Shown here one piece after another: positions 9,160-42,913 of a stretch of DNA of 54,320 bases. Numbering within the stretch: the stretch's first letter is position 1; each line of letters starts with the position of its first letter. Source of the stretch: a virus. The notes under the pieces were generated by a model that saw only the letters and a list, made by a program, of their open reading frames with translations, searched no databases and was not told the origin of the DNA. The stretch lies in the UHGV virus genome UHGV-1522278, one strand, 5' to 3'. Both the position numbers and the translations under genes were made by a program.

Positions 9160-9267
9160 TATGGACTTACCTTGTCTGCAAGTTTACAGAATGGCGTTAA
9201 CAGGTCAAGGATTGAAAAATACATTTTGTGACTTGCATCAAACTTTTTTAGCTTATAGGGTAGCGAC

Positions 9268-9915
9268 ATGAAAACAAAATGGTATGACTTGGCAAAACAA
9301 CTCATGCGGGCGCAGGGCATGAGTCAGGATTCACTGGCTGATCTCATGGGGATAACAAAAGGCGGCTTGTCGCACTGGCTGAACGGTCGCCGTGAGCCAA
9401 ATCTTGAAGATATTGCGCGGATCATGCGGGCGCTTGGGCGTCGGCAATTCACTGTCACACATGATGGGATGGTCATCGATGATTCTGTTTCTAACACGTT
9501 ACCGGGAGCGCCACCGCGTGATTTAGGCAGTTACCCGGTTGTTGACTGGAAGGACGCAGTAAACAATATGGAAGATGCAAGGCGATCAACATTACCACAC
9601 GTTACAACTAGCGTTATTTGTTCTGATGATAGTTATTGGCTGGTAGCTAAAGGCGAATCAATGAACGCTCCGCAAGGATTGAGTATACCAGCGGGGACGA
9701 TGATACTTGTCGATCCGCACGCGCCAGCTATTGACGGCAAACTAGTTATAGCCCAACTGGAGGAAGGGCAAACTCCTACGTTTAAACAGCTTGTTATTGA
9801 TGGAGGTCAAAGGCTTTTACGTTCACTCAATCCGCTGTATCCACCGATCCCTATGAATCCAGAATCTAAAATCATAGGTGTGGTAGTGGATGCGAAGATC
9901 GTAAACCTGCCATAA
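9268..9915 (+). CDS. cI-like repressor (HTH plus S24 LexA-type peptidase domain)
   Basis: 215 aa; N-terminal HTH (SQDSLADLMGITKGGLSHWLNG); C-terminal S24 motifs GESM and a downstream Lys. Confidence 0.88.
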   Translation: MKTKWYDLAKQLMRAQGMSQDSLADLMGITKGGLSHWLNGRREPNLEDIARIMRALGRRQFTVTHDGMVIDDSVSNTLPGAPPRDLGSYPVVDWKDAVNNMEDARRSTLPHVTTSVICSDDSYWLVAKGESMNAPQGLSIPAGTMILVDPHAPAIDGKLVIAQLEEGQTPTFKQLVIDGGQRLLRSLNPLYPPIPMNPESKIIGVVVDAKIVNLP

Positions 9916-9920
9916 ACACT

Positions 9921-9946
9921 AGCCGCCGAATGGCGGCTTTTCTTTG
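9921..9946 (+). terminator. rho-independent terminator after the repressor gene
   Basis: AGCCGCC-gaat-GGCGGCT followed by TTTTCTTT. Confidence 0.6.
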
Positions 9947-10037
9947 CTAAAAAACACCAAAACGTAAACAGAAAACCATGTTTATCATTTAAATATCAAG
10001 TGCTTATAAAATTTTATAAAAAAGTATACAAAATGTG

Positions 10038-10066
10038 TTGACTCGTGTTTTTACGGGGCGTATATT
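10038..10066 (+). promoter_or_regulatory. near-consensus sigma70 promoter (TTGACT - 17 nt - TATATT) flanked by an inverted repeat
   Basis: -35 at 10038-10043, -10 at 10061-10066; TTGACTCG (10038-10045) and CGAGTCAA (10069-10076) are exact reverse complements. Confidence 0.55.
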
Positions 10067-10108
10067 TCGAGTCAAAAGGAGGAAGCAAGGCAGGGAAAGA
10101 AGGTTACT

Positions 10109-10146
10109 TGCTCTTTAATAATCTGGTCAGCCGCTGGAAGTGCGGC
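10109..10146 (+). promoter_or_regulatory. nut-like site: rrn-type boxA (TGCTCTTTAATAA) plus boxB-like hairpin
   Basis: boxA-like 10109-10121; hairpin GCCGC-tggaagt-GCGGC at 10130-10146, in the leader of the rightward early transcript. Confidence 0.45.
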
Positions 10147-10202
10147 AATTAACGAAGATGATTTTTTATTAAGTATCATCAAGGATATAAGGAGATCAGA
10201 TC

Positions 10203-10493
10203 ATGACAGTTACAATCATGTATGGCAAATGTGACAGTAAACTGAATGCCAGGGAACGCAGAAGAATAAAAAGAGAAAACGAAAGAAAATCATCACCTGC
10301 AATTAATAAAACAGACAATGTGGATAAAGCTATTCGCTTTGCAAACGAGGAAAGATGCAAACCAAATAGCATTAAAGAACGTCGCAAAGGAGCAGTAAAA
10401 TGGTATACGGAAAATGAAAGCGGCAACTACTACCACGCAACGCAACCACGCCATTTAGGGGAAAAACCACTTGATAAAGTCCGTTACCATTAA
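10203..10493 (+). CDS. Arg-rich small protein, candidate N-like antiterminator
   Basis: 96 aa, strong RBS AGGAGA; N-terminal Arg-rich motif NARERRRIKRENERK; first gene after the boxA/boxB-like site. Confidence 0.5.
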   Translation: MTVTIMYGKCDSKLNARERRRIKRENERKSSPAINKTDNVDKAIRFANEERCKPNSIKERRKGAVKWYTENESGNYYHATQPRHLGEKPLDKVRYH

Positions 10494-10523
10494 TACAAAA
10501 TGTAAACAGCCGGAGGTGACGTT

Positions 10524-10646
10524 ATGGTTATTCAGGCGCTCCAATTCAAACTGGCGGTAGCGGAAATGCTTCATGATGCCGAAATGTGGAGCGCCGCGAA
10601 TAAAGCCTTATATATAGTGTTAACAGCGAAGGAGATTAAAGAGTGA
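10524..10646 (+). CDS. small ORF (40 aa)
   Basis: GGAGGTG RBS; stop overlaps the erf GTG start (GTGA). Confidence 0.35.
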   Translation: MVIQALQFKLAVAEMLHDAEMWSAANKALYIVLTAKEIKE

Positions 10647-16670: not shown

Positions 16671-17449
16671 GCAAGGGTAAACACTGGTTAAATAATTGGC
16701 TTAGAAGTTGGGTTGTGTGGTCGCTGTACGACGGCAGCGGGTACGCCGTTAAAGATTGGGCGGAAGCAGGATATAAGTGCTATTGCTTCAACTATGACGG
16801 CGCAAATCACGGCGATTATGAAGGCGTTAAAATCATTCATCCGAATATTGAATACGTTAACGTGTGGATTGACAGCCATTTCCTGGTAATGTTCTCCCCT
16901 GAATTGTCTGTTTATCCAGAGCCTGACATTATCTTGGGTTTTCCTCCATGCGACGATCTCGCCGTGTCTGGCGCTCGCTGGTTCGCTGATAAACGGAAAA
17001 AAGATCCTGACTTCCAGGTGAAGGCGGCGAATAGCGCAAAACTGGTAGAAAAACTGGCGGATATGCACAACGTTCCGTGGATGGTGGAAAATCCGGTGGG
17101 AGCACTGTCAACGCTATGGCGCAAACCTGATTTTATCTTCAACCCGTGCGCTTACGGTGGCTACCTGCCTGAAGATGACAAACATCCTGCTTTCCCTGAT
17201 GTTTACCCGCCGCGAGACGCGTACACGAAGAAAACTTGTATTTGGTGCGGCAACGGATTTAAACAGCCGCTTTTTAGACCTGTAGATCTTAACTCTGGTG
17301 ATAACCCTGGGTGGGCGAAAACCGGAGGAAGGACGAAACGAACAAAGATGATCCGCTCACTAACGCCGCGTGGCTTTGCCCGTGCTGTATTCCTGGCTAA
17401 CGACCTGGCCATCAATCGTGCTACGCTCAACCGCGTTTTACCGGACTGA
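16667..17449 (+). CDS. C5-cytosine-methyltransferase-like protein (divergent, short)
   Basis: 260 aa; motif I-like LYDGSGY, PC motif GFPPCDDLAVSG (PCD rather than PCQ), ENV-like MVENPVG; no obvious target-recognition domain. Confidence 0.55.
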   Translation: MSKGKHWLNNWLRSWVVWSLYDGSGYAVKDWAEAGYKCYCFNYDGANHGDYEGVKIIHPNIEYVNVWIDSHFLVMFSPELSVYPEPDIILGFPPCDDLAVSGARWFADKRKKDPDFQVKAANSAKLVEKLADMHNVPWMVENPVGALSTLWRKPDFIFNPCAYGGYLPEDDKHPAFPDVYPPRDAYTKKTCIWCGNGFKQPLFRPVDLNSGDNPGWAKTGGRTKRTKMIRSLTPRGFARAVFLANDLAINRATLNRVLPD

Positions 17450-17608
17450 AATTTACAAAATGGCGTCATTGCGTGATGTGGATCACATAATGGCGCTTTT
17501 TACCTTGTTCTGACGTATCCATTTTGTATACTTCAAACAAGCAAAATGCTCTTTAAAAATCCGGCAGCGCTGAAATGCGTAGAAATCACCTGAAAAGGAG
17601 AGAGCATT

Positions 17609-17785
17609 ATGCCTTTTGATAATTACCAATGGCATGACGACTATGAACGAGAAAGCGTCATGCGTGCAATGTGCAATGTATGCAGCACGAAGAAAGGAGA
17701 CTGCAACGAGTGCAACGAATGTTTAGATCATTGGCTAAAGGCCGGACACGCCGAAAGGCTGAACGAAACAGAGAATCAAAAATAA
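17609..17785 (+). CDS. small Cys-rich protein (58 aa)
   Basis: AGGAGA RBS; Cys cluster CNVCSTKKGDCNECNEC. Confidence 0.4.
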   Translation: MPFDNYQWHDDYERESVMRAMCNVCSTKKGDCNECNECLDHWLKAGHAERLNETENQK

Positions 17786-17799
17786 TCGGGGTGGTTTTT

Positions 17800-18405
17800 A
17801 TGCAAAACCCTAAAAAACCCATAAGACGCCGTTGCAAATGCTGCGGCGTTTTTTTTGAGCCTAAATATCACAATCAAACATGGTGCAGCGATGAATGTCT
17901 GGAAGAACTGAAATTTGATCAGCTATGTCGCGATCGTGAGAAGGCTATGAAGGCTATGGAACGGAAGAAACGCCGTGATAGCCAGCGTGAGGAACGCAAC
18001 CGGAAGCGGAAGCAGTTAAATCCGCGCAGCTACTGGATTAAACAGGCGCAAAACGTTTTTAACGCTTATATACGCGAGCGTGACGCGCTATTGCCGTGCA
18101 TATCATGCGGGACTTACTACGGTGAGCAATGCGGGTGGGATGCAGGCCATTACAGGACGGTAGCCGCCGCCGGACACCTTCGCTTTAACGATGATAATTG
18201 TCACAAGCAATGCAGGCACTGCAACCAGACACTAGACGGCAACATCGGAGGGTATCGCCCTGCGCTGATTCGAAAAATTGGCCTCGCCAGGGTAGTAGCT
18301 CTGGAGAACAACAACGAAACTCACAAATGGACGATAGAAGAATGCAAGGAAATCATAAAAGTCTATCAGGCTAAATTAGACGCCTTAAGGAGAAAGGCAG
18401 CATGA
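17800..18405 (+). CDS. ninG: NinG/Rap-like recombination protein
   Basis: start at the ATG at 17800; Cys-rich NinG-like sequence (CKCCGVFFEP...WCSDEC, CISCG, CHKQCRHCN). Confidence 0.8.
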   Translation: MQNPKKPIRRRCKCCGVFFEPKYHNQTWCSDECLEELKFDQLCRDREKAMKAMERKKRRDSQREERNRKRKQLNPRSYWIKQAQNVFNAYIRERDALLPCISCGTYYGEQCGWDAGHYRTVAAAGHLRFNDDNCHKQCRHCNQTLDGNIGGYRPALIRKIGLARVVALENNNETHKWTIEECKEIIKVYQAKLDALRRKAA

Positions 18406-18815
18406 ACGAATATACATTTAGCCTACCTTACCCGCCATCGAATAACCGCTATTACCGACATTCGCGCGGTTTTCACTATATAAGCAAAGTTGGGAAGGAA
18501 TATCGGGAACAAGTAAGAGACATCATCGAGCTATTAAATTTAAACATTAACCTACCTTGCCGACTGGCAATCGCCATCTATGCCGCGCCGCCGGATAACC
18601 GGATCAGAGATCTGGATAATATCCCTAAATGCCTTTTTGATAGCCTTACCTATGCCGGATTTTGGAAGGATGACGGGCAAATTGACTCAATAAAAATTGT
18701 CCGCTGCCGGAAGGTAAAAGGCGGACGCTTGTTTATTAAGATCCGCGAACGCGGCGACCTGCTACCGGATATTGACGAATACGCGACGAATACGTGGGGG
18801 TTACAATGGAGCTAA
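18402..18815 (+). CDS. rusA: RusA-type Holliday junction resolvase
   Basis: 137 aa; RusA-like N-terminus LPYPPSNNRYYRHSRG and DLDNIPK acidic motif. Confidence 0.85.
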   Translation: MNEYTFSLPYPPSNNRYYRHSRGFHYISKVGKEYREQVRDIIELLNLNINLPCRLAIAIYAAPPDNRIRDLDNIPKCLFDSLTYAGFWKDDGQIDSIKIVRCRKVKGGRLFIKIRERGDLLPDIDEYATNTWGLQWS

Positions 18816-19042
18816 TAAACATTGTTGTTAAATGTACTCAATCAAGCGTCGATTTTTTCACTGAAGGTAAAAAATATTCAGGTTTTATAAAGCATGGGTG
18901 CTTTGCTTTCATTCTACAAGACGATCTTGTATCTGATTTCGACGACGCCGACGCATGGCGATTAGTCCAGTATTTCCCGTCAAAAAATGAGTATTTTTTG
19001 CAGGGTCATTTTAAAACTAGGTTTAAGGTGGTAGAGAAATGA
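18806..19042 (+). CDS. hypothetical protein
   Basis: start at the ATG at 18806 with GGGGG RBS. Confidence 0.45.
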   Translation: MELINIVVKCTQSSVDFFTEGKKYSGFIKHGCFAFILQDDLVSDFDDADAWRLVQYFPSKNEYFLQGHFKTRFKVVEK

Positions 19043-19221
19043 AAAACGAAATTAAAGATCTGCAAATAGATATTCAGCGCGATGAGCATGATTTAGAAAC
19101 GGTCCGACAAATCCAGGCTTTTCATATGCGCGAATTGCTTGCATTGAAAGAGCTTGAGAGAAAGTTAGTTCAGTCTATTTCTGATCGTAAACACCTTATT
19201 GCTCGTTACGGGGGCAAGTAA
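19039..19221 (+). CDS. hypothetical protein (predicted coiled coil)
   Basis: 60-aa ORF. Confidence 0.45.
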   Translation: MKNEIKDLQIDIQRDEHDLETVRQIQAFHMRELLALKELERKLVQSISDRKHLIARYGGK

Positions 19222-19943
19222 TGAATCTGGAATCTATTCTCAAATTCCACTTCCCAAAATCACCGCGTTTATCAGATGAAAGCCGGGGCACGTCCCCGGA
19301 TGCACTTAATACTACGGATGCACTAACAGCAGCAGGCATGGCGCAATCGCGCGTAGAGCTTGGTTATAGCGCTTTTTTAGGGAAGATGGAACTATCACAA
19401 GCCGAAAAACATAAGGCCGTAGTTTTGCTTACAGAGCGTTTAAGGACTATGGCAAAAGATTATGAATACGTTATGGAACTGGACGAGGCCAAACGCAATG
19501 ATCTTATTATTCTTGTTGCCGTTTTCGCGTTTCGGGATTATTGCCAAAGCGCCGCGACGGAAAAAACTTGCCCGGAGTGCGGCGGATATAAATTTACGTT
19601 TGACGACTACGGAGAAAAACACCTTTGCAAAAAATGCAAGGGGCATGGGACAGTTCGCAATCATTGTAAACAATGCAAGGGCCGTGGCGAAGTACCGGAT
19701 AAAGCAGCCAGTGAAGCGGCGGAAATGCCAGTGTTCAAAACGTGCCAGCATTGCGGCGGGCGCGGGTACTCGCGTTTCCCTGTAGATCTTGTACGGCAGG
19801 CGGTTAATCAGCTTGTTTTTCCGGTAAGCCGATCAACATGGTGGAAAAAGTACCGGGCTTTCTATGAAGACGCCATTGCTGAATTGTTCAAAGAAGAGGC
19901 GCTGGCAGATAACGAAATTAAAAGAGTGACGCGGGGTGAATGA
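19221..19943 (+). CDS. DnaJ-type zinc-finger protein (4 x CxxCxGxG); possible Q-like late regulator
   Basis: 240 aa; CPECGGYK, CKKCKGHG, CKQCKGRG, CQHCGGRG repeats; sits where Q would be after ninG/rusA. Confidence 0.55.
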   Translation: MNLESILKFHFPKSPRLSDESRGTSPDALNTTDALTAAGMAQSRVELGYSAFLGKMELSQAEKHKAVVLLTERLRTMAKDYEYVMELDEAKRNDLIILVAVFAFRDYCQSAATEKTCPECGGYKFTFDDYGEKHLCKKCKGHGTVRNHCKQCKGRGEVPDKAASEAAEMPVFKTCQHCGGRGYSRFPVDLVRQAVNQLVFPVSRSTWWKKYRAFYEDAIAELFKEEALADNEIKRVTRGE

Positions 19944-20146
19944 TGGATAAGCTGGAAATAAACGATCAGTTTGCTGTTATCTTGTTCGAAGATAAAACGG
20001 GCGGTGCATGGTGTAAGAAAGTCACTGGTGCGGAAGCACGATTAATATTGGGTATGGCAAGCGCGTTAAATGATGGTGAATTGCCAGCCGTACCAGTTGA
20101 GCCAGTACATATTTACGGACGGAATAAAGATAATGAAAATAATTAA
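19940..20146 (+). CDS. hypothetical protein
   Basis: 68-aa ORF. Confidence 0.4.
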   Translation: MMDKLEINDQFAVILFEDKTGGAWCKKVTGAEARLILGMASALNDGELPAVPVEPVHIYGRNKDNENN

Positions 20147-20480
20147 TATTGGGTGGCTGTATTGCGAAAACTGCGACGACGATGGTATGGTCGTAAAAAC
20201 TGAAAAAGGTTGCGGCTTCATGCTGTATCAAGGTGATAAATTCGTTTGTCCTCGCTGCGGCGGCGGTGGTGAGATAGAAATCGTTAATGATATTGCTACA
20301 GCACATAAGCCATCTCGCATTGTCCTTGATGAAAAAATAAAAATTCATCCTGATTTATTACAGCAAATTATCGATCACGTATCGGCAGCCGCAATCTATA
20401 GCGATAACAATTATCAGCGTGAAATGAACGTCAAACGTGCTATTAAGCAGTATTTCGAGGTTGACGACAATGAAGCCTAA
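20133..20480 (+). CDS. zinc-ribbon protein
   Basis: start at the ATG at 20133; CENC...CPRCGGGG. Confidence 0.5.
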   Translation: MKIINIGWLYCENCDDDGMVVKTEKGCGFMLYQGDKFVCPRCGGGGEIEIVNDIATAHKPSRIVLDEKIKIHPDLLQQIIDHVSAAAIYSDNNYQREMNVKRAIKQYFEVDDNEA

Positions 20481-20742
20481 ATTAAAGGAACATCTATTTG
20501 CAAAACTGGTTAACGAATTAACGGAAACGGCACACCATTACGCTGGAACACAACAGCTACGCGGACGGTTGTCTTCAGTTGTCAACCGTTACATTGATGC
20601 AGGATGTCACCGCAAAGGTGAAATGACTATGGACAAGGCCATCAAGCGCCGTTCGGCTGAATGGTCAGTGAGTAACACCGGATTAACCGGATACATTGAA
20701 GGCTATAACGACTGTTTACAGGATCATAGCAATGAAAAGTAA
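20470..20742 (+). CDS. hypothetical protein
   Basis: start at the ATG at 20470 (GAGGT RBS). Confidence 0.45.
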   Translation: MKPKLKEHLFAKLVNELTETAHHYAGTQQLRGRLSSVVNRYIDAGCHRKGEMTMDKAIKRRSAEWSVSNTGLTGYIEGYNDCLQDHSNEK

Positions 20743-20950
20743 CCGCAAGCGCCTTGTAAGGGCATATGACAAAGCATTAAAGGCTTTTGATGATCTGCGA
20801 AGCAATAAGCGCCAGCGCCGCAAATGGGCGCGCATGCTTGTTCATGAATGGCATTATCCTGATGCTGCCTTGATAGAAGGTGCACCGCCATTTACACAGG
20901 AACAAGCCGACGAAGTAGCTAACGATAACGTTTATTATATGATGTGGTGA
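20732..20950 (+). CDS. hypothetical protein
   Basis: start at the ATG at 20732; basic N-terminus. Confidence 0.45.
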   Translation: MKSNRKRLVRAYDKALKAFDDLRSNKRQRRKWARMLVHEWHYPDAALIEGAPPFTQEQADEVANDNVYYMMW

Positions 20951-20954
20951 TAAT

Positions 20955-21320
20955 ATGCAAATAATCATTGATTATCTTTGTCATGCTGCAAATACGCTTT
21001 TTGGTTTTTATCAACAACCATTCCTCAAAGAATGGGACGAAATGCTGAATGACATCATTGATAAAGGGTTAATAATGGAGGTTGACGATCTCACAATCAA
21101 ATTTAATTACGATGGTAAAGAATATCTAATTTGGGTTGGTAATAGATGGTATTCATACGGTCATATTTATTCAATTGGTGGTAAGTTCATTAAAAGAAAC
21201 CAGGAATTTAGGCCACGCTTCCGCACAATGCGCCGCCTGCATGACCTGCATATGAAGATATTTGAAGATCAGGAAGAGCGCGAACTATTCAAGATCTACG
21301 GGGATAAATCATGGAATTAA
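20955..21320 (+). CDS. hypothetical protein
   Basis: 121-aa ORF. Confidence 0.5.
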   Translation: MQIIIDYLCHAANTLFGFYQQPFLKEWDEMLNDIIDKGLIMEVDDLTIKFNYDGKEYLIWVGNRWYSYGHIYSIGGKFIKRNQEFRPRFRTMRRLHDLHMKIFEDQEERELFKIYGDKSWN

Positions 21321-21541
21321 AAATCTGGCAGGCTATCGACGTAGTTGATAATGCGTTATCTATGTTCGCCACCGATGGGAAACGCGTAGCAATCACTACA
21401 TGGACGCGCAACTATGATGATATTTCTTTTCGTCGCAGAACGGCGGAGTGGTTTTTCTCTGAAGGCGGCTACACGATGAACATCGCACAGCTTGCCAGAA
21501 TGAAAGATGAAAAGCTGGTGGACAGCTACACAACTGCGTAA
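21311..21541 (+). CDS. hypothetical protein
   Basis: 76-aa ORF. Confidence 0.45.
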   Translation: MELKIWQAIDVVDNALSMFATDGKRVAITTWTRNYDDISFRRRTAEWFFSEGGYTMNIAQLARMKDEKLVDSYTTA

Positions 21542-21551
21542 CGGGGTAAAT

Positions 21552-21785
21552 ATGCGTATCTATGAACACAAGCGGGATAAAACCCGCTTTTTTGTTCGTG
21601 CTGGCGTGGCGTACCAGTATCACGAATGCGGTTACATTGAGGCGCTTGCTTACGATCTGGACTTCGAGCAAGAAAAGGAATGGTTCGATTTTAAAATTTA
21701 CCGTAAGCGCAAACCAACTCGCGACGAGCGCCACGCTATCCGTGAATTTTTAATCAGCATTGAACGTTGGGAGACAGAAGAGTGA
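21552..21785 (+). CDS. hypothetical protein
   Basis: start at the ATG at 21552. Confidence 0.45.
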   Translation: MRIYEHKRDKTRFFVRAGVAYQYHECGYIEALAYDLDFEQEKEWFDFKIYRKRKPTRDERHAIREFLISIERWETEE

Positions 21786-22009
21786 AAGTTAAATTCTTGC
21801 ACGATCACGGTTATCCGTCACTGAAACAGGTTGTTGGTAAGGTTGTTAACGTCGTCCATAGCGATGATGTCACTTGCATGATTAACGGTGCTGATTTAAT
21901 CGCCGCTGGCGCTGATGATCATTACATCAATCCTGCCTGGTCGTATACGTTCAGCCTGGGTGACTTCGTTGGCGACAAGGGGCGCGGGCTGGAAGTAGTC
22001 GAGGGTTAA
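21782..22009 (+). CDS. hypothetical protein
   Basis: GTG start at 21782 overlapping the upstream stop. Confidence 0.4.
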   Translation: MKVKFLHDHGYPSLKQVVGKVVNVVHSDDVTCMINGADLIAAGADDHYINPAWSYTFSLGDFVGDKGRGLEVVEG

Positions 22010-22013
22010 CATC

Positions 22014-22262
22014 ATGGACGTTTACGAAGATCTATACCTCCAGACAAACACCCGCACTTTTTATTTTCTGAAAAACGGCGTCGTATATCGCAGCGACGAC
22101 GGGGTAATAATGAAGGAGTGGTTATTTAAGCGTAAAGACCTACTCGACGATCTGGTTTTTGCCGGGATATTTCGTAAACGTCCGGCTAACCTGGAAGAAG
22201 AAATGTTGATTGAGGTATATCAAAATGAAAATCAGGGTAAGTTATTTCCGGGCGAAAGATAA
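22014..22262 (+). CDS. hypothetical protein
   Basis: 82-aa ORF. Confidence 0.45.
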   Translation: MDVYEDLYLQTNTRTFYFLKNGVVYRSDDGVIMKEWLFKRKDLLDDLVFAGIFRKRPANLEEEMLIEVYQNENQGKLFPGER

Positions 22263-22476
22263 GGCAACAGGAAAGCAGATGGCGATCCTGGTAAACGAGG
22301 CCAATTACATGTTTGTGCTTCAACCGTGGTGTATAGCTGACTATAACGATAATTATCGCCGCCACAGCGCGCGTGGTGCTGTAGGGATGAAAGGCTGGCA
22401 GCCGCGCGACATGGAAAGCTATTGTGAATGGAAGCTGATAGCAAAATACACGGTCGATTATAAAGGTGTGTTCTGA
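22225..22476 (+). CDS. hypothetical protein
   Basis: start at the ATG at 22225 (GAGGT RBS). Confidence 0.45.
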   Translation: MKIRVSYFRAKDKATGKQMAILVNEANYMFVLQPWCIADYNDNYRRHSARGAVGMKGWQPRDMESYCEWKLIAKYTVDYKGVF

Positions 22477-22531
22477 TGGTATTGCTTTCACGCAATAAAT
22501 ATAAAACGTGATCTACCTCGCAAAATATACG

Positions 22532-22563
22532 AAATGGCATTGTTTCGGCAGTGCCATTTTGTT
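22532..22563 (+). terminator. candidate rho-independent terminator
   Basis: AAATGGCA...TGCCATTT stem with a long loop, followed by TTTTGTT. Confidence 0.35.
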
Positions 22564-22586
22564 ATATATAAGCCACCGAAAGACGG

Positions 22587-22898
22587 ATGGGCAAAATCAT
22601 GAAAAGCAATAAATTCATAGCGTGCTGTTTTGTTGAAGTACCTGAAGGTGATGTCTTCTGCAATTACGAATTTAAAGACAGTTGGGGAAAATCTCATGTT
22701 GTAGTTGGCAAGCGCGGGGACTGGTTATACATAACAGACGATGACATGATTTTTACTGTAAGCCAGTTATTCAAAATTAAGTCAGAAAATAGTGAAGCAC
22801 CACTTTGCAGAATGTTTAACATGCATTATCACTCACTATTATTGTTAAAACAAGATGTTGTAAACAAAGCGCGTAGCTTACCTGGTGCCGAATTTTAA
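22587..22898 (+). CDS. hypothetical protein (AT-rich insert)
   Basis: 103-aa ORF in a visibly AT-richer stretch after a terminator-like hairpin. Confidence 0.5.
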   Translation: MGKIMKSNKFIACCFVEVPEGDVFCNYEFKDSWGKSHVVVGKRGDWLYITDDDMIFTVSQLFKIKSENSEAPLCRMFNMHYHSLLLLKQDVVNKARSLPGAEF

Positions 22899-22921
22899 TT
22901 TCTTACGAAGGAGAATGACAA

Positions 22922-23122
22922 ATGTCTAAATTTATCAGCGTTAAAGTTTTTCGTGGCACTTTTCCAGAAGATGAAAAAAATGGACAATTCGCCGGACAAC
23001 CTGGCGCATGTTTCCGTGTAGCAACTGACAACGAAGATTGCGTAAAATGCTACCACGTATCTGAACCTCCTTTTGACGTGAAATATCTTGATAATGCAGA
23101 TCACGTTAAATTTTTATCTTAG
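22922..23122 (+). CDS. hypothetical protein (AT-rich insert)
   Basis: 66-aa ORF with AAGGAG RBS. Confidence 0.5.
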   Translation: MSKFISVKVFRGTFPEDEKNGQFAGQPGACFRVATDNEDCVKCYHVSEPPFDVKYLDNADHVKFLS

Positions 23123-23221
23123 TATCATTGGAACTTAATCCATTCCCTGGTGATGAAGTGGAATTGATTGGCGCTGAACTGGTCGCTGAATACAAAATGA
23201 CTGAAGGTGTAACAGGGGGAA

Positions 23222-23476
23222 TTGACATTGAGCGCATCAAGTAAGCTATACAAGATCAGGTGTAAAGGCGAATATCCTGGCTTTACGACTGGTTGCGAAT
23301 ACCTGGGCCATATTGGGTACGGCCCTTTCGGCGAATTAGGGATGAATACGCTGGACGACGATGGCGACAACAGGACGCTTGATCTTGATTCTGATGATTT
23401 CGAATACATCCCGCCAGTAACTTACCGCGTGGTTGATGAGTTCCTGGCTGAACATGAAGACGATGAGGATGATTAA
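23222..23476 (+). CDS. small highly acidic protein
   Basis: 84 aa, non-ATG start inferred; Asp/Glu-rich C-terminal half ending EDDEDD. Confidence 0.4.
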   Translation: MTLSASSKLYKIRCKGEYPGFTTGCEYLGHIGYGPFGELGMNTLDDDGDNRTLDLDSDDFEYIPPVTYRVVDEFLAEHEDDEDD

Positions 23477-23608
23477 ATGGAAGATTGGTATAAAAATTTG
23501 CTAATTATGTTTCTTTCTGAAAATTGGGCGCTATTTGAGCGTTTTTGCGAGGAACATGGAGAAGACCCTAACGATATTTATCACGATCTTGGGGGTGAAG
23601 ATGATTGA
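23477..23608 (+). CDS. small ORF (43 aa)
   Basis: ATG directly after the upstream stop. Confidence 0.3.
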   Translation: MEDWYKNLLIMFLSENWALFERFCEEHGEDPNDIYHDLGGEDD

Positions 23609-23801
23609 ATGCCTTATTATTGCGGTTATTATCATTTACCTGGCTGGCGTCATTTTAATGGGCGCTTTTCAGAAAGCTGTTGATAGTGACGGCATTATTT
23701 GGTTCGAGCTAGTCTTCTGGCCTTTCATTACGATATACGCATTCAGTGACGCTATGCGTATTAACATCATGCGAGCCATTAAGGAGCGCAAAAATGATTG
23801 A
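23601..23801 (+). CDS. small membrane protein
   Basis: start at the ATG at 23601 (GGGGGTGAAG RBS); two hydrophobic segments. Confidence 0.5.
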   Translation: MIECLIIAVIIIYLAGVILMGAFQKAVDSDGIIWFELVFWPFITIYAFSDAMRINIMRAIKERKND

Positions 23802-23976
23802 AGATGGCGTGTACGCGGCAACAGTAGTTGAAAGGCTGTTTTACCGCGTAGAAGGCGATGATATTCGTATCCGCGTTGGCGGTGGCGAGTGGGTAGCGCC
23901 AATCATTAAGACGACGCGAGAAACAATTAAAATATTTCTTGATGCTGGCGAACTGGTGAAGGTTGGCGACCTATGA
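23794..23976 (+). CDS. hypothetical protein
   Basis: start at the ATG at 23794 (AGGAG RBS). Confidence 0.45.
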   Translation: MIEDGVYAATVVERLFYRVEGDDIRIRVGGGEWVAPIIKTTRETIKIFLDAGELVKVGDL

Positions 23977-24149
23977 ATGAGATCGAAGATGGCATCTATT
24001 TGCATAAGGTATTCAACATCGCTTATTTGGTTAGAGGTGAAGCGGTGATGATAAGACCTGATGACGTTCCGTATTGGGAATTAAGCGACATGGATCGGTG
24101 GCACATGCAAATGCTACTTGATAATGGACTGATATACAGAAAGCGGTAA
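23973..24149 (+). CDS. small ORF (58 aa)
   Basis: ATGA overlap with the upstream gene. Confidence 0.35.
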   Translation: MNEIEDGIYLHKVFNIAYLVRGEAVMIRPDDVPYWELSDMDRWHMQMLLDNGLIYRKR

Positions 24150-24157
24150 AGCCGTAT

Positions 24158-24186
24158 TTGTGGGTCGAAAACAAACAGATTAAAAT
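24158..24186 (+). promoter_or_regulatory. candidate late promoter (TTGTGG - 17 nt - TAAAAT) upstream of the lysis cassette
   Basis: -35-like at 24158-24163, -10-like at 24181-24186; followed within about 30 nt by a strong terminator hairpin. Confidence 0.35.
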
Positions 24187-24213
24187 ATTACCTAACAATG
24201 CGAAAGTGTAACT

Positions 24214-24240
24214 ACCCGGCCCCGTGCCGGGTTTTTGCTT
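24214..24240 (+). terminator. rho-independent terminator just upstream of the holin gene (tR'-like)
   Basis: ACCCGGC-cccgt-GCCGGGT followed by TTTTTGCTTT. Confidence 0.55.
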
Positions 24241-24256
24241 TGTTGGAGGTAAATCT

Positions 24257-24457
24257 ATGTTCGACAGAATACGGGAGGCGTGTGCGTATGTGACCGGGGC
24301 CGTAACTGCTTTTTTCGGCGCGATAACCATCAATGACATTGCCGTCTTTGTGGGTATCTTATCAACCATTGGCACATTTGCCGTTAATTATTACTTCAAA
24401 TCACAGGAGAACAAGCGAGCGCAAGAGGAACACGACGCGCGAATGGGGAATAAGTAA
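24257..24457 (+). CDS. holin (class II / pinholin-like)
   Basis: 66 aa from the ATG at 24257 (GGAGG RBS); two TM segments and a charged C-terminus; precedes a SAR endolysin. Confidence 0.75.
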
Positions 24458-24458
24458 C

Positions 24459-24950
24459 ATGATTAGCCAATCGCTGAAAAACAAGATTGTTGCGGCGGCG
24501 GCTGGTGGGGCGATCGCTATTGCGGCGGTGATGATTAAGCCATTAGAGGGAGTTGATTACAATCCTTATCGTGATGTTGTTGGTGTATGGACTGTTTGCC
24601 ACGGTCATACGGGAAAAGACATCATGCTTGGCAAGACTTACACGCAATCAGAATGCGATGCTTTGTTAAATAAAGATCTACACAAGACCGCAAAAGCGAT
24701 CGATCCATATATTAAAGTCGAAATATCAGATTTTACCCGCGCAGCACTTTATTCATTCGCCTATAACGTAGGCGCTACCAATTTCAAAACATCAACCTTA
24801 TTGAAGCTACTCAATGACGGCAAGAAATCAGAAGCGTGCGCACAGCTTAAACGCTGGGTATACGCTGGCGGTAAGAAGTGGCAAGGCCTGGTTAACCGCC
24901 GCGAGGTTGAATATGCCGTTTGCGAATGGGGTGAAACATGGACAAGGTGA
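24459..24950 (+). CDS. SAR endolysin (T4-type lysozyme fold, phage 21 R-like)
   Basis: 163 aa; N-terminal signal-anchor-release segment [17 protein letters not shown]; catalytic E-x8-D-x5-T. Confidence 0.9.
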
Positions 24951-25408
24951 AGACGTTAATCATCGCCGTTGTTGTTTGTATTGTTGTTGGCCTTGTTGCC
25001 GCGCTCAGTCATTGCCAGTCAGTGATAAACACAATGCAAAGCGAGCTAACTACTACGCAGGGCGCACTAAAAACAGCAAGTAACACTATTCAGCAGATGA
25101 AGGAGCGAAACGCCGAACTGTCAAAACTTGATAAGAGGTATCACGATGAGATTAAAGCTATCAGATCTGACATTGCCGATCTGCGCACTGGCATTGATAA
25201 CGGTACTATCCGGTTGCGCGTCAACGCAATACCCGTGCGAGTGTCCGACTCCACCGGAACCGCCAGCCGCATTGATGGAGCCACCTGTAGACTCACTCCC
25301 GACGCTGAATCAGCTTATCTATCCCTCAGAGAACAACTAAAAACGAAAGACGCTCAGATCACTGGGTTACAGGACTACATCAAAACGCAGTGCTTACGCA
25401 AAGAATAA
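24938..25408 (+). CDS. Rz-like i-spanin
   Basis: 156 aa; N-terminal TM segment then coiled-coil periplasmic region; overlaps endolysin end. Confidence 0.8.
25146..25340 (+). CDS. Rz1-like o-spanin lipoprotein (embedded in the +1 frame of Rz)
   Basis: start at the ATG at 25146 (AAGAGG RBS); lipobox LSGC; Pro-rich mature part. Confidence 0.7.
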   Translation: MRLKLSDLTLPICALALITVLSGCASTQYPCECPTPPEPPAALMEPPVDSLPTLNQLIYPSENN

Positions 25409-25687
25409 CAGCGCGTGGACGTGTCGCCGTTTCCGCCAGCCAGCCATAACCGGGCCAATCCTTCCCGCGAGCGACGGCGGAAAAGTCAAAAACACGTAAT
25501 ACCTGGTCAACAGCCTCATTAACAGGTCCGGCGCTACCTGGGTAGAAGAAAGCGCCATTCTCCAGTTTTATAAAATTCTGAAAACGGTACTCATGCAGCG
25601 CCGTTTTTAGTGTTTTATAGCTGTTTTCACTCCCTGCGGTGTCCGGTTTTGCGGGGGTTATATTTTTCAGGATAGAGGAATATTCTG

Positions 25688-26272
25688 ATGGCTAAGGCTA
25701 AAGGCATCAAGTTGCCTCAATTCAAAGTTCCGCTCTTTGAGCATACAACTGTTTTCTTCTGCCCGACCCGCGAGATGTTCTATGAGTTTTGCGAAAAGGC
25801 AGGGATCCCAATCGAACCTGATTTCGAACTGGCAGGGGGATTAACACTTACTTGCACTGGAGAGAAAGGCGGTAACTTCTACGTGATCGCAGTATTCGAC
25901 AATGAGTTAGGAACGCTGGTACACGAATGCGCCCACACCACATTTCACGTATTAAGTGATGTAGGTGTCGTGGCGACAACTGATCCAACTCATCCGGCAA
26001 ACGAGACTTACGCTTACATGGTAGGCCGCATCTTTGATGCATTCTTCCCGATCCTGGCTGAATCAAACGAAGCACAGGTGGCAGCTATGCAGGCCGCTGA
26101 AGTCGTAGAGAAGGCATTAGACCAGGCAGAAAAGGCGACTGATGCAGCAGAACAGGCAGTTGAACAGGCAGAGGAGCCGAAAGAAGAGAAAAAACCAGCG
26201 AAGAAAGGCAAACGTAAGCCTAAAGCAAAAGAAGCGCTTGTACCGCGTGTAATGAGCTTTAAACGGGGGTGA
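25688..26272 (+). CDS. hypothetical protein with HExxH motif and Lys-rich C-terminal tail
   Basis: 194 aa; VHECAHTTFH; C-terminus KEEKKPAKKGKRKPKAKE. Confidence 0.6.
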   Translation: MAKAKGIKLPQFKVPLFEHTTVFFCPTREMFYEFCEKAGIPIEPDFELAGGLTLTCTGEKGGNFYVIAVFDNELGTLVHECAHTTFHVLSDVGVVATTDPTHPANETYAYMVGRIFDAFFPILAESNEAQVAAMQAAEVVEKALDQAEKATDAAEQAVEQAEEPKEEKKPAKKGKRKPKAKEALVPRVMSFKRG

Positions 26273-42785: not shown

Positions 42786-42913
42786 TTCACACCTCCGCGC
42801 CATTTTGTTAACCATGCTTCCTTTTGAGTACAATATACATATTGTAAAAAACGCGATCAACCGTTTTGGCATGATTTAGCGTGATTTAGATCACAAAATG
42901 ACAAGGTGATAAA

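Follow-up and report, generated by a model that had tools for sequence, protein, structure and literature searches.

The window analysed in this work, a 54,320-nt stretch of virus DNA, is, by sequence comparison, the complete genome of a member of the mEpimmI (mEp021-like) group of temperate coliphages. The 3-kb stretch around the site described here matches mEp010, mEp044, mEp554, mEp013, mEp021 and mEp515 at 88-92% DNA identity, and the phage MagusPhagus at 86.5%. Members of this group are non-lambdoid, depend on Nus factors and come from human faeces; in human gut samples they are reportedly as common as lambdoid phages, and their flexible genes are located mostly in variable regions (PMC11893012). 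The genes of the window that were recognized with Pfam and that frame the site are listed in Table 1, together with the features of the site itself. A search for tRNA genes found none, and Rfam yielded no match at gathering thresholds anywhere in the window.

The site comprises a conserved intergenic block with a terminator-like hairpin, followed by two small genes, ORF1 and ORF2, and is bounded by the flanking genes 22225-22476 and 23228-23476; we refer to the interval between these two genes as the slot. The slot belongs to the rightward operon, 2.6 kb downstream of the gene for the Q-family antiterminator and 1.7 kb upstream of the holin gene, so that the first-pass annotation was fair in calling this the early/late transition region. 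It is embedded in a run of approximately 18 small genes, and 1.1 kb further downstream lies the intergenic region 24150-24256, with the lysis genes beyond it. Searches of the small neighbor genes against Pfam, PHROGs, PADLOC and NCBIfam retrieved only PHROG families of unknown function.

Features of the slot and of its genomic surroundings in the window
Feature	Position	Strand	Evidence or remarks
CI-like repressor	9268-9915	+	Pfam
NinG	17671-18405	+	Pfam
RusA	18402-18815	+	Pfam
Q-family antiterminator (PF03589)	19221-19943	+	Pfam
Conserved intergenic cassette of ~70 nt	22505-22573	+	From just past the stop of the upstream gene to ~8 nt beyond the T-tract
CRP-like box CGTGATCTACCTCGCA	22507-22522		2 mismatches to TGTGA-N6-TCACA
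Terminator-like RNA hairpin	22532-22559	+	12-bp stem, UUCG loop; T-rich tail 22560-22569
Weak candidate sigma-70 promoter over the hairpin	22540-22568	+	TTGTTT, 17-nt spacer, TGtTATATA (extended -10); read from sequence
ORF1, 99 aa, mEp021 gp43 family, intact accessory gene	22599-22898	+	Homologues, dN/dS
ORF2, 66 aa, 5' portion of a 107-aa gene (phrog_23107) truncated by a frameshift	22922-23122	+	Profile match, alignment
T5 run, site of 1-nt deletion (T6 in relatives)	23111-23115	+	Alignment with mEp010, mEp044
Out-of-frame 3' remnant of ORF2, codons ~66-107, to TAA 23242-23244	23123-23244	+	Alignment
Holin	24257-24457	+	Pfam
Lysozyme	24459-24950	+	Pfam
Rz-type lysis protein	24938-25408	+	Pfam

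There is no intergenic space after the Q gene because the next ORF overlaps its stop codon, and the only long gaps on the plus strand are the hairpin block and 24150-24256. The latter contains TTGTGG, 17 nt and TAAAAT; a strong terminator follows at 24214-24232, immediately ahead of the holin gene. This arrangement coincides in position with the annotated TERM_5 of mEp021, and the gap probably holds the late promoter. Given this distribution of gaps, we infer that late transcription would start just before the holin gene and that the small genes downstream of Q, those of the slot included, would belong to the early right operon.

To compare the slot across relatives, we used the conserved upstream gene 22014-22262, a homologue of mEp021 gp41, as the anchor, and obtained 50 loci, 46 from IMG/VR and four annotated ones from GenBank/RefSeq; a scan of genome contigs with the gp41-like anchor found no relatives. 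ORFs between the two flanking genes were clustered into cassettes. The resulting order is F11, zero to three copies of F0, F7, a further F0, the hairpin, F6, F4 (ORF1), F5 and F2 (ORF2). Every cassette is optional, the order is constant across the compared loci, and a slot can hold as many as eight or nine cassettes. Of the 50 loci, 35 have ORF1 and 45 have ORF2, the flanking genes being found in 44-50. The phage mEp021 has ORF1 but lacks both ORF2 and the hairpin, several prophages encode ORF2 without ORF1, and mEp013, an isolated phage that forms plaques, lacks both genes, which are thus dispensable. An attempt to unite the small proteins of the region in one family failed, the hhalign probabilities being too weak (31% for F0-F11 and about 9% for both F0-F7 and F0-ORF1); the only paralogy supported is that between two phrog_15318 genes (90% probability).

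The first-pass annotation had interpreted the AT-rich stretch behind the hairpin as a horizontally acquired two-gene insert. AT-richness as such is real but moderate. The GC content of 22532-23130 is 37.4%, against 46.2% for the whole window (z = -2.6), a value reached by only 0.2-0.3% of stretches of equal size, and among non-overlapping 600-nt segments this is the second lowest; the lowest is the region of immunity and the early promoter near 9935. The GC content at third codon positions (GC3) is 0.35 in ORF1 (z = -1.7) and 0.27-0.31 in ORF2, which makes ORF2 the lowest or second lowest among the 85 ORFs of the window (mean 0.465). The dip predicted for GC and codon usage therefore exists, but it does not indicate foreign origin: low GC3 is common to the entire families of ORF1 (0.36) and ORF2 (0.38), compared with 0.46-0.52 in the flanking genes, and other genes of the window are equally AT-rich, for example, the core gene for the N-like Gp17 (GC3 of 0.32). 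Thus, AT-richness is a standing trait of these fast-evolving, lineage-restricted accessory genes.

The comparison of relatives leads to the same conclusion. The slot of the window (755 bp, hairpin-ORF1-ORF2) is among the shortest in a range from 704 to 2617 bp, and being near the minimum, it shows that nothing was inserted here. Furthermore, alleles of the two genes assort independently and do not form one module: in three loci (L011, L012 and L014), ORF1 is 90-93% identical to that of the window but ORF2 only 63-64%, and in three others (L001, L005 and L009), ORF2 is 85-89% identical but ORF1 only 71-75%. All close homologues of both genes, many of them on ~54-kb contigs, belong to mEpimmI phages or to mEpimmI prophages in E. 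coli and Shigella and occupy the same syntenic position, also in the prophage of an O157:H7 strain, which is of the mEpimmI type and carries ORF2. Neither repeats nor scars flank the AT-rich stretch, and conservation of the hairpin block does not depend on the presence of the genes. Hence, the hairpin does not mark the left edge of an insert but is a separate conserved element that adjoins different neighbor genes. What speaks for a recent acquisition of a two-gene module behind a terminator is, besides the dip in GC and GC3, the absence of ORF1 or ORF2 from some relatives and the occurrence of distant ORF1 homologues in unrelated phage and prophage contexts (see below). The genes are indeed flexible rather than core, but, with the slot at nearly its minimal size, variability does not amount to insertion. 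We consider a recent acquisition very unlikely; it is largely refuted by the comparison of relatives. The site is a case of ordinary accessory-gene mosaicism in phages, with homologous features already annotated in GenBank. A more general lesson is that a dip in composition next to a hairpin is no proof of recent insertion; at this site, the genome has almost the fewest genes of all those compared.

ORF1 is a real gene, albeit shorter than the 103 aa first proposed. The conserved start is the ATG at 22599, giving a protein of 99 aa, the same length as mEp021 gp43 and most other members of the family to which ORF1, by homology, belongs. Clustered at 90% identity, this family falls into 47 groups, whose sources are E. 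coli, Shigella or gut metagenomes and which align with ORF1 over 100% of its length at 47-94% identity; in the mEp phages, the gene is found at the same genomic position. Searches of Pfam, PHROG, PADLOC, NCBIfam and the PDB with ORF1 yielded no match. Both ORF1 and ORF2 are under purifying selection, with overall dN/dS of 0.19 and 0.35, respectively, compared with 0.09-0.14 for the flanking genes. In ORF1, constraint is concentrated in residues 1-60 (dN/dS of 0.07) and relaxed in residues 61-99 (0.47), a combination of a constrained domain and a fast-evolving tail that, we conjecture, would fit a protein binding a variable partner. In the last 11 codons of the gene (0.90) and in approximately the first 14, conservation extends to the third codon position. 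The gene junctions thus appear to be conserved as DNA, as expected if homologous recombination shuffles the cassettes there.

An exhaustive profile search with ORF1 retrieved a few distant small homologues of the N-terminal domain that share the motif GKR.DWLYITDQDRIFT and differ in their tails. Two of these (P0168 and P0169) are encoded in other contexts, one among the early genes of an unrelated phage and one at the edge of a further prophage, which suggests long-term movement of the N-terminal domain among phages. Matches of ORF1 to giant proteins with Ig-like or cadherin-like repeats were rejected as non-homologous, being sums of weak matches to a strand motif resembling G-x-W-x-Y-x-x-D.

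ORF2 is, according to the alignments, a broken member of phrog_23107, and the annotation of a separate 66-aa gene has to be corrected. The ORF matches positions 1-65 of the 107-position profile (E = 1.7e-33), and the 41 codons that remain are found in another frame. Loss of one T from a run of six places a TAG stop codon at 23120-23122, and the out-of-frame remnant overlaps the start of the next gene (TTG at 23228); restoring the T yields a product of 107 aa. The intact 324-bp frame is present in 41 of the 45 relatives that encode ORF2 and also in the closest prophage, that of E. coli WCHEC025970, which is 98.8% identical. The family spans 203 clusters of close homologues from E. coli, Shigella or gut metagenomes, and searches of Pfam, PADLOC, NCBIfam and the PDB with ORF2 gave no match. 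The proposal that each of the two ORFs has a ribosome-binding site of its own holds best for ORF2, which is preceded by a strong AAGGAG at 22908-22913, the corresponding sequence of ORF1 (GGATGGG) being weaker.

A single missing base within a homopolymer raises the question of whether the gene is truly lost: the lesion could be a sequencing or assembly error, or slippage on the T-run, during translation or transcription, could bypass it. Past the break, the frame has stayed open, with 100% conservation in places, which is compatible with these possibilities and also implies that the break is recent. Nevertheless, the truncated product was found on 5 public contigs of differing lengths from three collections (JGI/IMG, ENA and Logan), of which one, obtained from human gut metagenome ERR1190768, shows no difference from the window across 3201 nt and may stem from the same sample; the lesion is thus reproducible across assemblies, with the caveat that these may derive from one sample. 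The great majority of the relatives simply carry the intact frame, and the sequence does not conform to the canonical X XXY YYZ heptamer. A run of five T is short for efficient slippage. Altogether, we regard an artifact or a bypass as improbable.

Structure prediction added little for either protein. The AlphaFold model of ORF1 is poor (pLDDT of 60.2), with a five-stranded N-terminal part followed by helices; that of ORF2 has an alpha/beta fold, with pLDDT of 70.5 and pTM of 0.63. Both models are mediocre and match nothing: Foldseek searches against the PDB and BFVD returned no hit below E = 0.1 and TM-scores of at most 0.36, and profile searches of PDB sequences with both proteins gave nothing below E = 0.25.

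The hairpin that precedes ORF1 is borne out as a stable structure, with a folding energy of -14.5 kcal/mol on its own and -22 kcal/mol with flanks; in the latter form, the z-score is -4.3, and none of 200 shuffled sequences folded equally well. The sequence 3' of the hairpin is TGTTATATAT. The T-tract is interrupted (TTTTGTTATATAT), with a UUUU run that overlaps the end of the stem and is followed by GUUAUAUAU, and a simple terminator scan of the window did not report the site; these two points weigh against a terminator. In relatives, ARNold-predicted terminators are annotated at the homologous place in GenBank, namely, T8 in mEp010 and T7 in mEp044. The stem-loop is stable and contains G+C, and it is oriented along the direction of the genes, with a conservation pattern that keeps the pairing, all of which is characteristic of intrinsic terminators. 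Most likely, the hairpin is an intrinsic terminator of the rightward early operon, as its predicted fold and orientation suggest. A search of Rfam around the hairpin gave no match at E up to 1, and no second copy of the hairpin, its half-sites or the block was detected in the window.

Conservation extends well beyond the stem. In 31 unique copies drawn from 40 loci, most positions of the block are at least 90% conserved, whereas conservation in the flanks drops to 40-60%; the genes next to the block vary, with at least five contexts on its upstream side and three on its downstream side, and it is missing from about a quarter of the relatives, including mEp021. Within the stem, positions are either invariant or show one-sided changes to G-U wobbles, with a single non-pair in one copy, and the loop varies freely. 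No double compensatory change was seen in the 31 copies, so that the support from covariation is limited. The ~25 nt that precede the stem share this conservation, although a plain terminator would not need them, which suggests that this cassette may do something more.

Because the arms of the inverted repeat are conserved and its center is variable, and because the repeat overlaps the -35 region of a candidate promoter, it could in principle act at the level of DNA, as an operator bound by a dimeric protein of the phage or the host. The direction and type of the changes argue otherwise. In 11 of the 31 copies, an A-to-G substitution converts a U-A pair of the stem to U-G, retaining the pairing in the plus strand RNA but breaking the symmetry of the DNA, and in 30 of the 31, the plus strand fold is more stable than that of the minus strand (on average, -14.1 versus -8.2 kcal/mol), which argues for an RNA hairpin along the direction of the genes. 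The genome also lacks a second copy of the half-sites. A role as an operator therefore appears extremely unlikely to us.

The conserved segment upstream of the stem contains a CRP-like box, and a sigma-70 promoter can be read over the hairpin, raising the possibility that the block combines a terminator with a promoter that is weak, has an extended -10 element, is driven by the CRP-type site and starts transcription near 22575. The geometry is suggestive. Class I CRP promoters of the lac type have their site centered near -61.5, and the center of the box is located approximately 60.5-61.5 bp upstream of the proposed start. Relative to this start, conservation of the block spans approximately -70 to +1, and the sequences diverge past it. 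The left half-site GTGA and the final CA of the box are invariant across the copies of the block. Many relatives have a perfect TGTGA-N6-TCACA there, with four different spacers, and the block accounts for 17 of the 20 such sequences present in 392 kb of related loci, although the perfect copies are related by descent and so the counts are not independent. The layout also recalls that of the early promoter at 10021-10063, which consists of the 15-mer AAAGTATACAAAATG, 2-3 nt, a -35 hexamer, 17 nt and TATATT; the same 15-mer is present exactly in the cassette of four relatives.

Several observations count against this possibility. Boxes such as that of the window, with two mismatches, occur near chance (25 sites with at most two mismatches in the window versus 23.5 expected), and in many relatives, the right half-site is poor, leaving two to three mismatches; moreover, the palindrome could just as well form a small hairpin in RNA, its loop being variable. 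The hexamers of the candidate promoter match the consensus at only 7 of 12 positions, for which reason the promoter scan did not list it, and there is no candidate -10 element with a conserved final T. What the hairpin block shares with the early promoter is confined to the one 15-mer, which was equaled in 1 of 500 shuffles for the version of the relatives but in 50 of 500 for the 13/15 match of the window, so that the latter is not significant. Promoter-like sites are not enriched in 19000-26000 (13 versus 13.8 expected), and hence we attach no weight to a 10/12 match on the minus strand at 22921-22892. On balance, a combined terminator and promoter seems unlikely, if still worth keeping in mind. 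Such a promoter would express the accessory genes from ORF1 to about 24149, up to the terminator at 24214-24232, from the prophage according to the catabolite state of the host, in the manner of a moron-like operon.

A more elaborate version of this idea is that the block is a portable regulatory junction, in which a terminator and a CRP-activated promoter share the 15-mer with the early promoter, and that recombination at such junctions keeps the order of the cassettes. If so, the cassettes downstream would be switched on in lysogens by host nutrition and insulated from upstream transcription. We are quite doubtful of this version.

Taken together, the observations are explained reasonably well, and in our judgment probably, by a terminator in front of accessory genes. 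Under this explanation, the window would carry the minimal form of a hypervariable accessory slot, composed of a cassette with a terminator core, a gene of the gp43 family and a phrog_23107 gene inactivated by a 1-nt deletion, with read-through of the terminator by antiterminated polymerase. Antitermination by Gp17 has been described at nutR1, nutR2 and nutL, and the terminators tested were t1, t2 and t5, none of which is at the site of the hairpin (PMC11893012). In the window, the boxA-like sequence GCTCTTTAA of the nut sites is found at approximately 10111 and 17548 and, on the minus strand, at approximately 9094. Unmodified RNA polymerase arriving from upstream would stop at the hairpin, whereas polymerase that the N-like Gp17 and Nus factors of the host have modified at the nutR sites would read through it. 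The accessory genes past the hairpin would then be expressed as delayed-early genes, and in the lysogen, stray transcription would be kept off both these and the lysis genes. Since mEp021 and about a quarter of the relatives do without it, the hairpin is not needed for regulation of the phage. The differences in gene content among the relatives would have arisen through recombination at conserved junctions and through deletions, not through recent insertion in this genome. As for the ORF1 and ORF2 proteins, our guess is that they most likely modulate the host or a competitor early in infection.

The significance of these findings beyond the mEpimmI group is small. For work on these phages, they provide a map of the slot downstream of Q, with its optional cassettes in fixed order ahead of the lysis genes; an intergenic element, conserved among relatives, that is a candidate terminator and may also be a promoter; two protein families restricted to this lineage, without detectable relatives of known fold; and a corrected annotation, in which the 66-aa ORF becomes a broken 107-aa gene.

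The closest known counterpart is the homologous region of other mEpimmI phages, at the same position between Q and the lysis genes (mEp021 gp43; mEp010_66 and mEp010_68 with T8; mEp044_62 and mEp044_63 with T7; GenBank accessions MH706966, PP180001 and PP180004; PMC11893012). The proteins in these relatives are 71-76% (ORF1) and 80-89% (ORF2) identical to those of the window, and the hairpin is annotated as a predicted Rho-independent terminator. The window differs in having the shortest arrangement, hairpin-ORF1-ORF2, and a frameshifted ORF2; the records describe the products as 'hypothetical protein', and neither the slot nor the fixed order of cassettes nor the conserved intergenic block is discussed in the accompanying study (PMC11893012).

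Among lambdoid phages, three systems invite comparison. The terminators tR2-tR4 around the nin region of lambda, which polymerase modified by N and Nus reads through, resemble the hairpin and its interrupted T-tract in their placement within a long rightward early operon with dispensable small genes, in a phage with an N-type antiterminator and nut sites. The hairpin described here, however, is located downstream of Q, is optional in relatives and is a candidate terminator.

The morons of lambdoid phages (HK97/HK022-type) are, like the slot genes, small, AT-rich and dispensable, patchily present in relatives and located beside a terminator; in the slot, patchy presence goes along with deviant GC content (37% versus 46%) and GC3. 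In contrast to morons, the slot genes have no convincing promoter of their own, the weak candidate amounting to 7 of 12 matches plus TG, and the terminator stands ahead of the genes rather than behind them, the next terminator-like site on the plus strand with a strong G+C stem being that at 24214-24232, six genes on. Nor are these genes inserted between otherwise adjacent ones: they form a series of optional cassettes in fixed order, and in no relative that retains both flanking genes are these adjacent.

Finally, the cargo region of lambdoid prophages, exemplified by stx in the Stx phages, is similar in that variable accessory genes are placed between a Q-family antiterminator and the genes for holin, endolysin and spanin. 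In the window, no toxin or other recognizable function is found in this position. Moreover, the late promoter seems to be located not right after Q but just before the holin gene (approximately 24158-24186, followed by the terminator at 24214-24232), so that the cargo of the slot would be early rather than late.

In the related loci compared here (L001-L050), optional cassette genes occupy the accessory-gene slot that also holds the terminator-like hairpin, ORF1 (a 99-aa gene of the mEp021 gp43 family) and ORF2 (a frameshift-truncated 107-aa gene, phrog_23107). Members of family F0 (68-81 aa), with up to 4 copies per genome, are interleaved there with those of families F7 and F11, between homologues of 22225-22476 and the hairpin; the window has no member of any of the three. 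A distant paralogous relationship between F0 and F11 is possible, with an hhalign E of 5e-4 and 31% probability.

Downstream of ORF2, the phrog_25234 gene, of which RefSeq and GenBank annotate only a 44-aa C-terminal piece in relatives, appears to start at a TTG codon (23228) within the 3' end of intact ORF2, an arrangement that suggests translational coupling. In the frameshifted ORF2, translation stops 105 nt upstream of this start. The two small, mutually adjacent phrog_15318 genes (90% probability in profile-profile comparison) are, by sequence similarity, tandem paralogues. The distant ORF1 homologues P0169 and P0168 occur in contexts indicating that the conserved N-terminal domain of ORF1 is common to unrelated phages.

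Features of the window and of two loci encoding distant ORF1 homologues
Feature	Position	Strand	Details
boxA-like GCTCTTTAA	9085-9102	-	stem-loop after
boxA-like GCTCTTTAA	10110-10140		stem-loop after
boxA-like GCTCTTTAA	17547-17585		stem-loop after
15-mer AAAGTATACAAAATG and near copies	10021-10035, 17520-17534, 22522-22536, 9179-9193, 17448-17462	- (17520-17534)	
CRP-like palindrome CGTGATGTGGATCACA	17472-17487		near-perfect, one mismatch
CRP-like palindrome CGTGATTTAGATCACA	42880-42895		near-perfect, one mismatch
Sigma-70-like match	22921-22892	-	10/12; TTGTCA, 18 nt, TAAAAT
phrog_25234 gene	23228-23476		82 aa; next gene 3' of ORF2
phrog_15318 gene pair	23794-23976, 23973-24149		both match phrog_15318, E about 1e-30
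Candidate late promoter	about 24158-24186 (in 24150-24256)		TTGTGG, 17 nt, TAAAAT
Strong terminator	24214-24232 plus T-run		about 30 nt 3' of candidate late promoter
P0169	L051, 4001-4318		among small early genes; phage with D5-type primase-helicase
P0168	L053, 4001-4273		prophage edge, adjoining purU and ychJ

Over 600 nt, GC content is lowest genome-wide at 9935-10535 (36.8%), a segment that spans the region of the early promoter together with gp17, the gene of the N-like antiterminator, so that low GC is not confined to accessory genes. The three boxA-like sites with their stem-loops are probably the nutL, nutR1 and nutR2 known for this phage group; the CRP-like palindrome at 17472-17487 shares the intergenic region of the nutR2-like site. 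Intergenic regulatory regions contain the 15-mer repeatedly, in exact or nearly exact form: 9 sites have at most 3 mismatches, where 2.7 would be expected. An exact copy lies directly 5' of the early promoter's -35 hexamer, and the hairpin block of four relatives contains another; the 15-mer may be an operator or UP-like element. A sigma-70-like match runs antisense across the ORF1/ORF2 junction; since the region shows no enrichment of promoter-like sites, the match is probably a side effect of the AT-rich composition.

The segment immediately 5' of the holin gene is likely, from its sequence, to be a late promoter unit, and TERM_5 is annotated at the matching position in the type phage mEp021. 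Its promoter and terminator are laid out similarly to lambda pR'-tR', although the unit is 4.2 kb away from the antiterminator gene Q.
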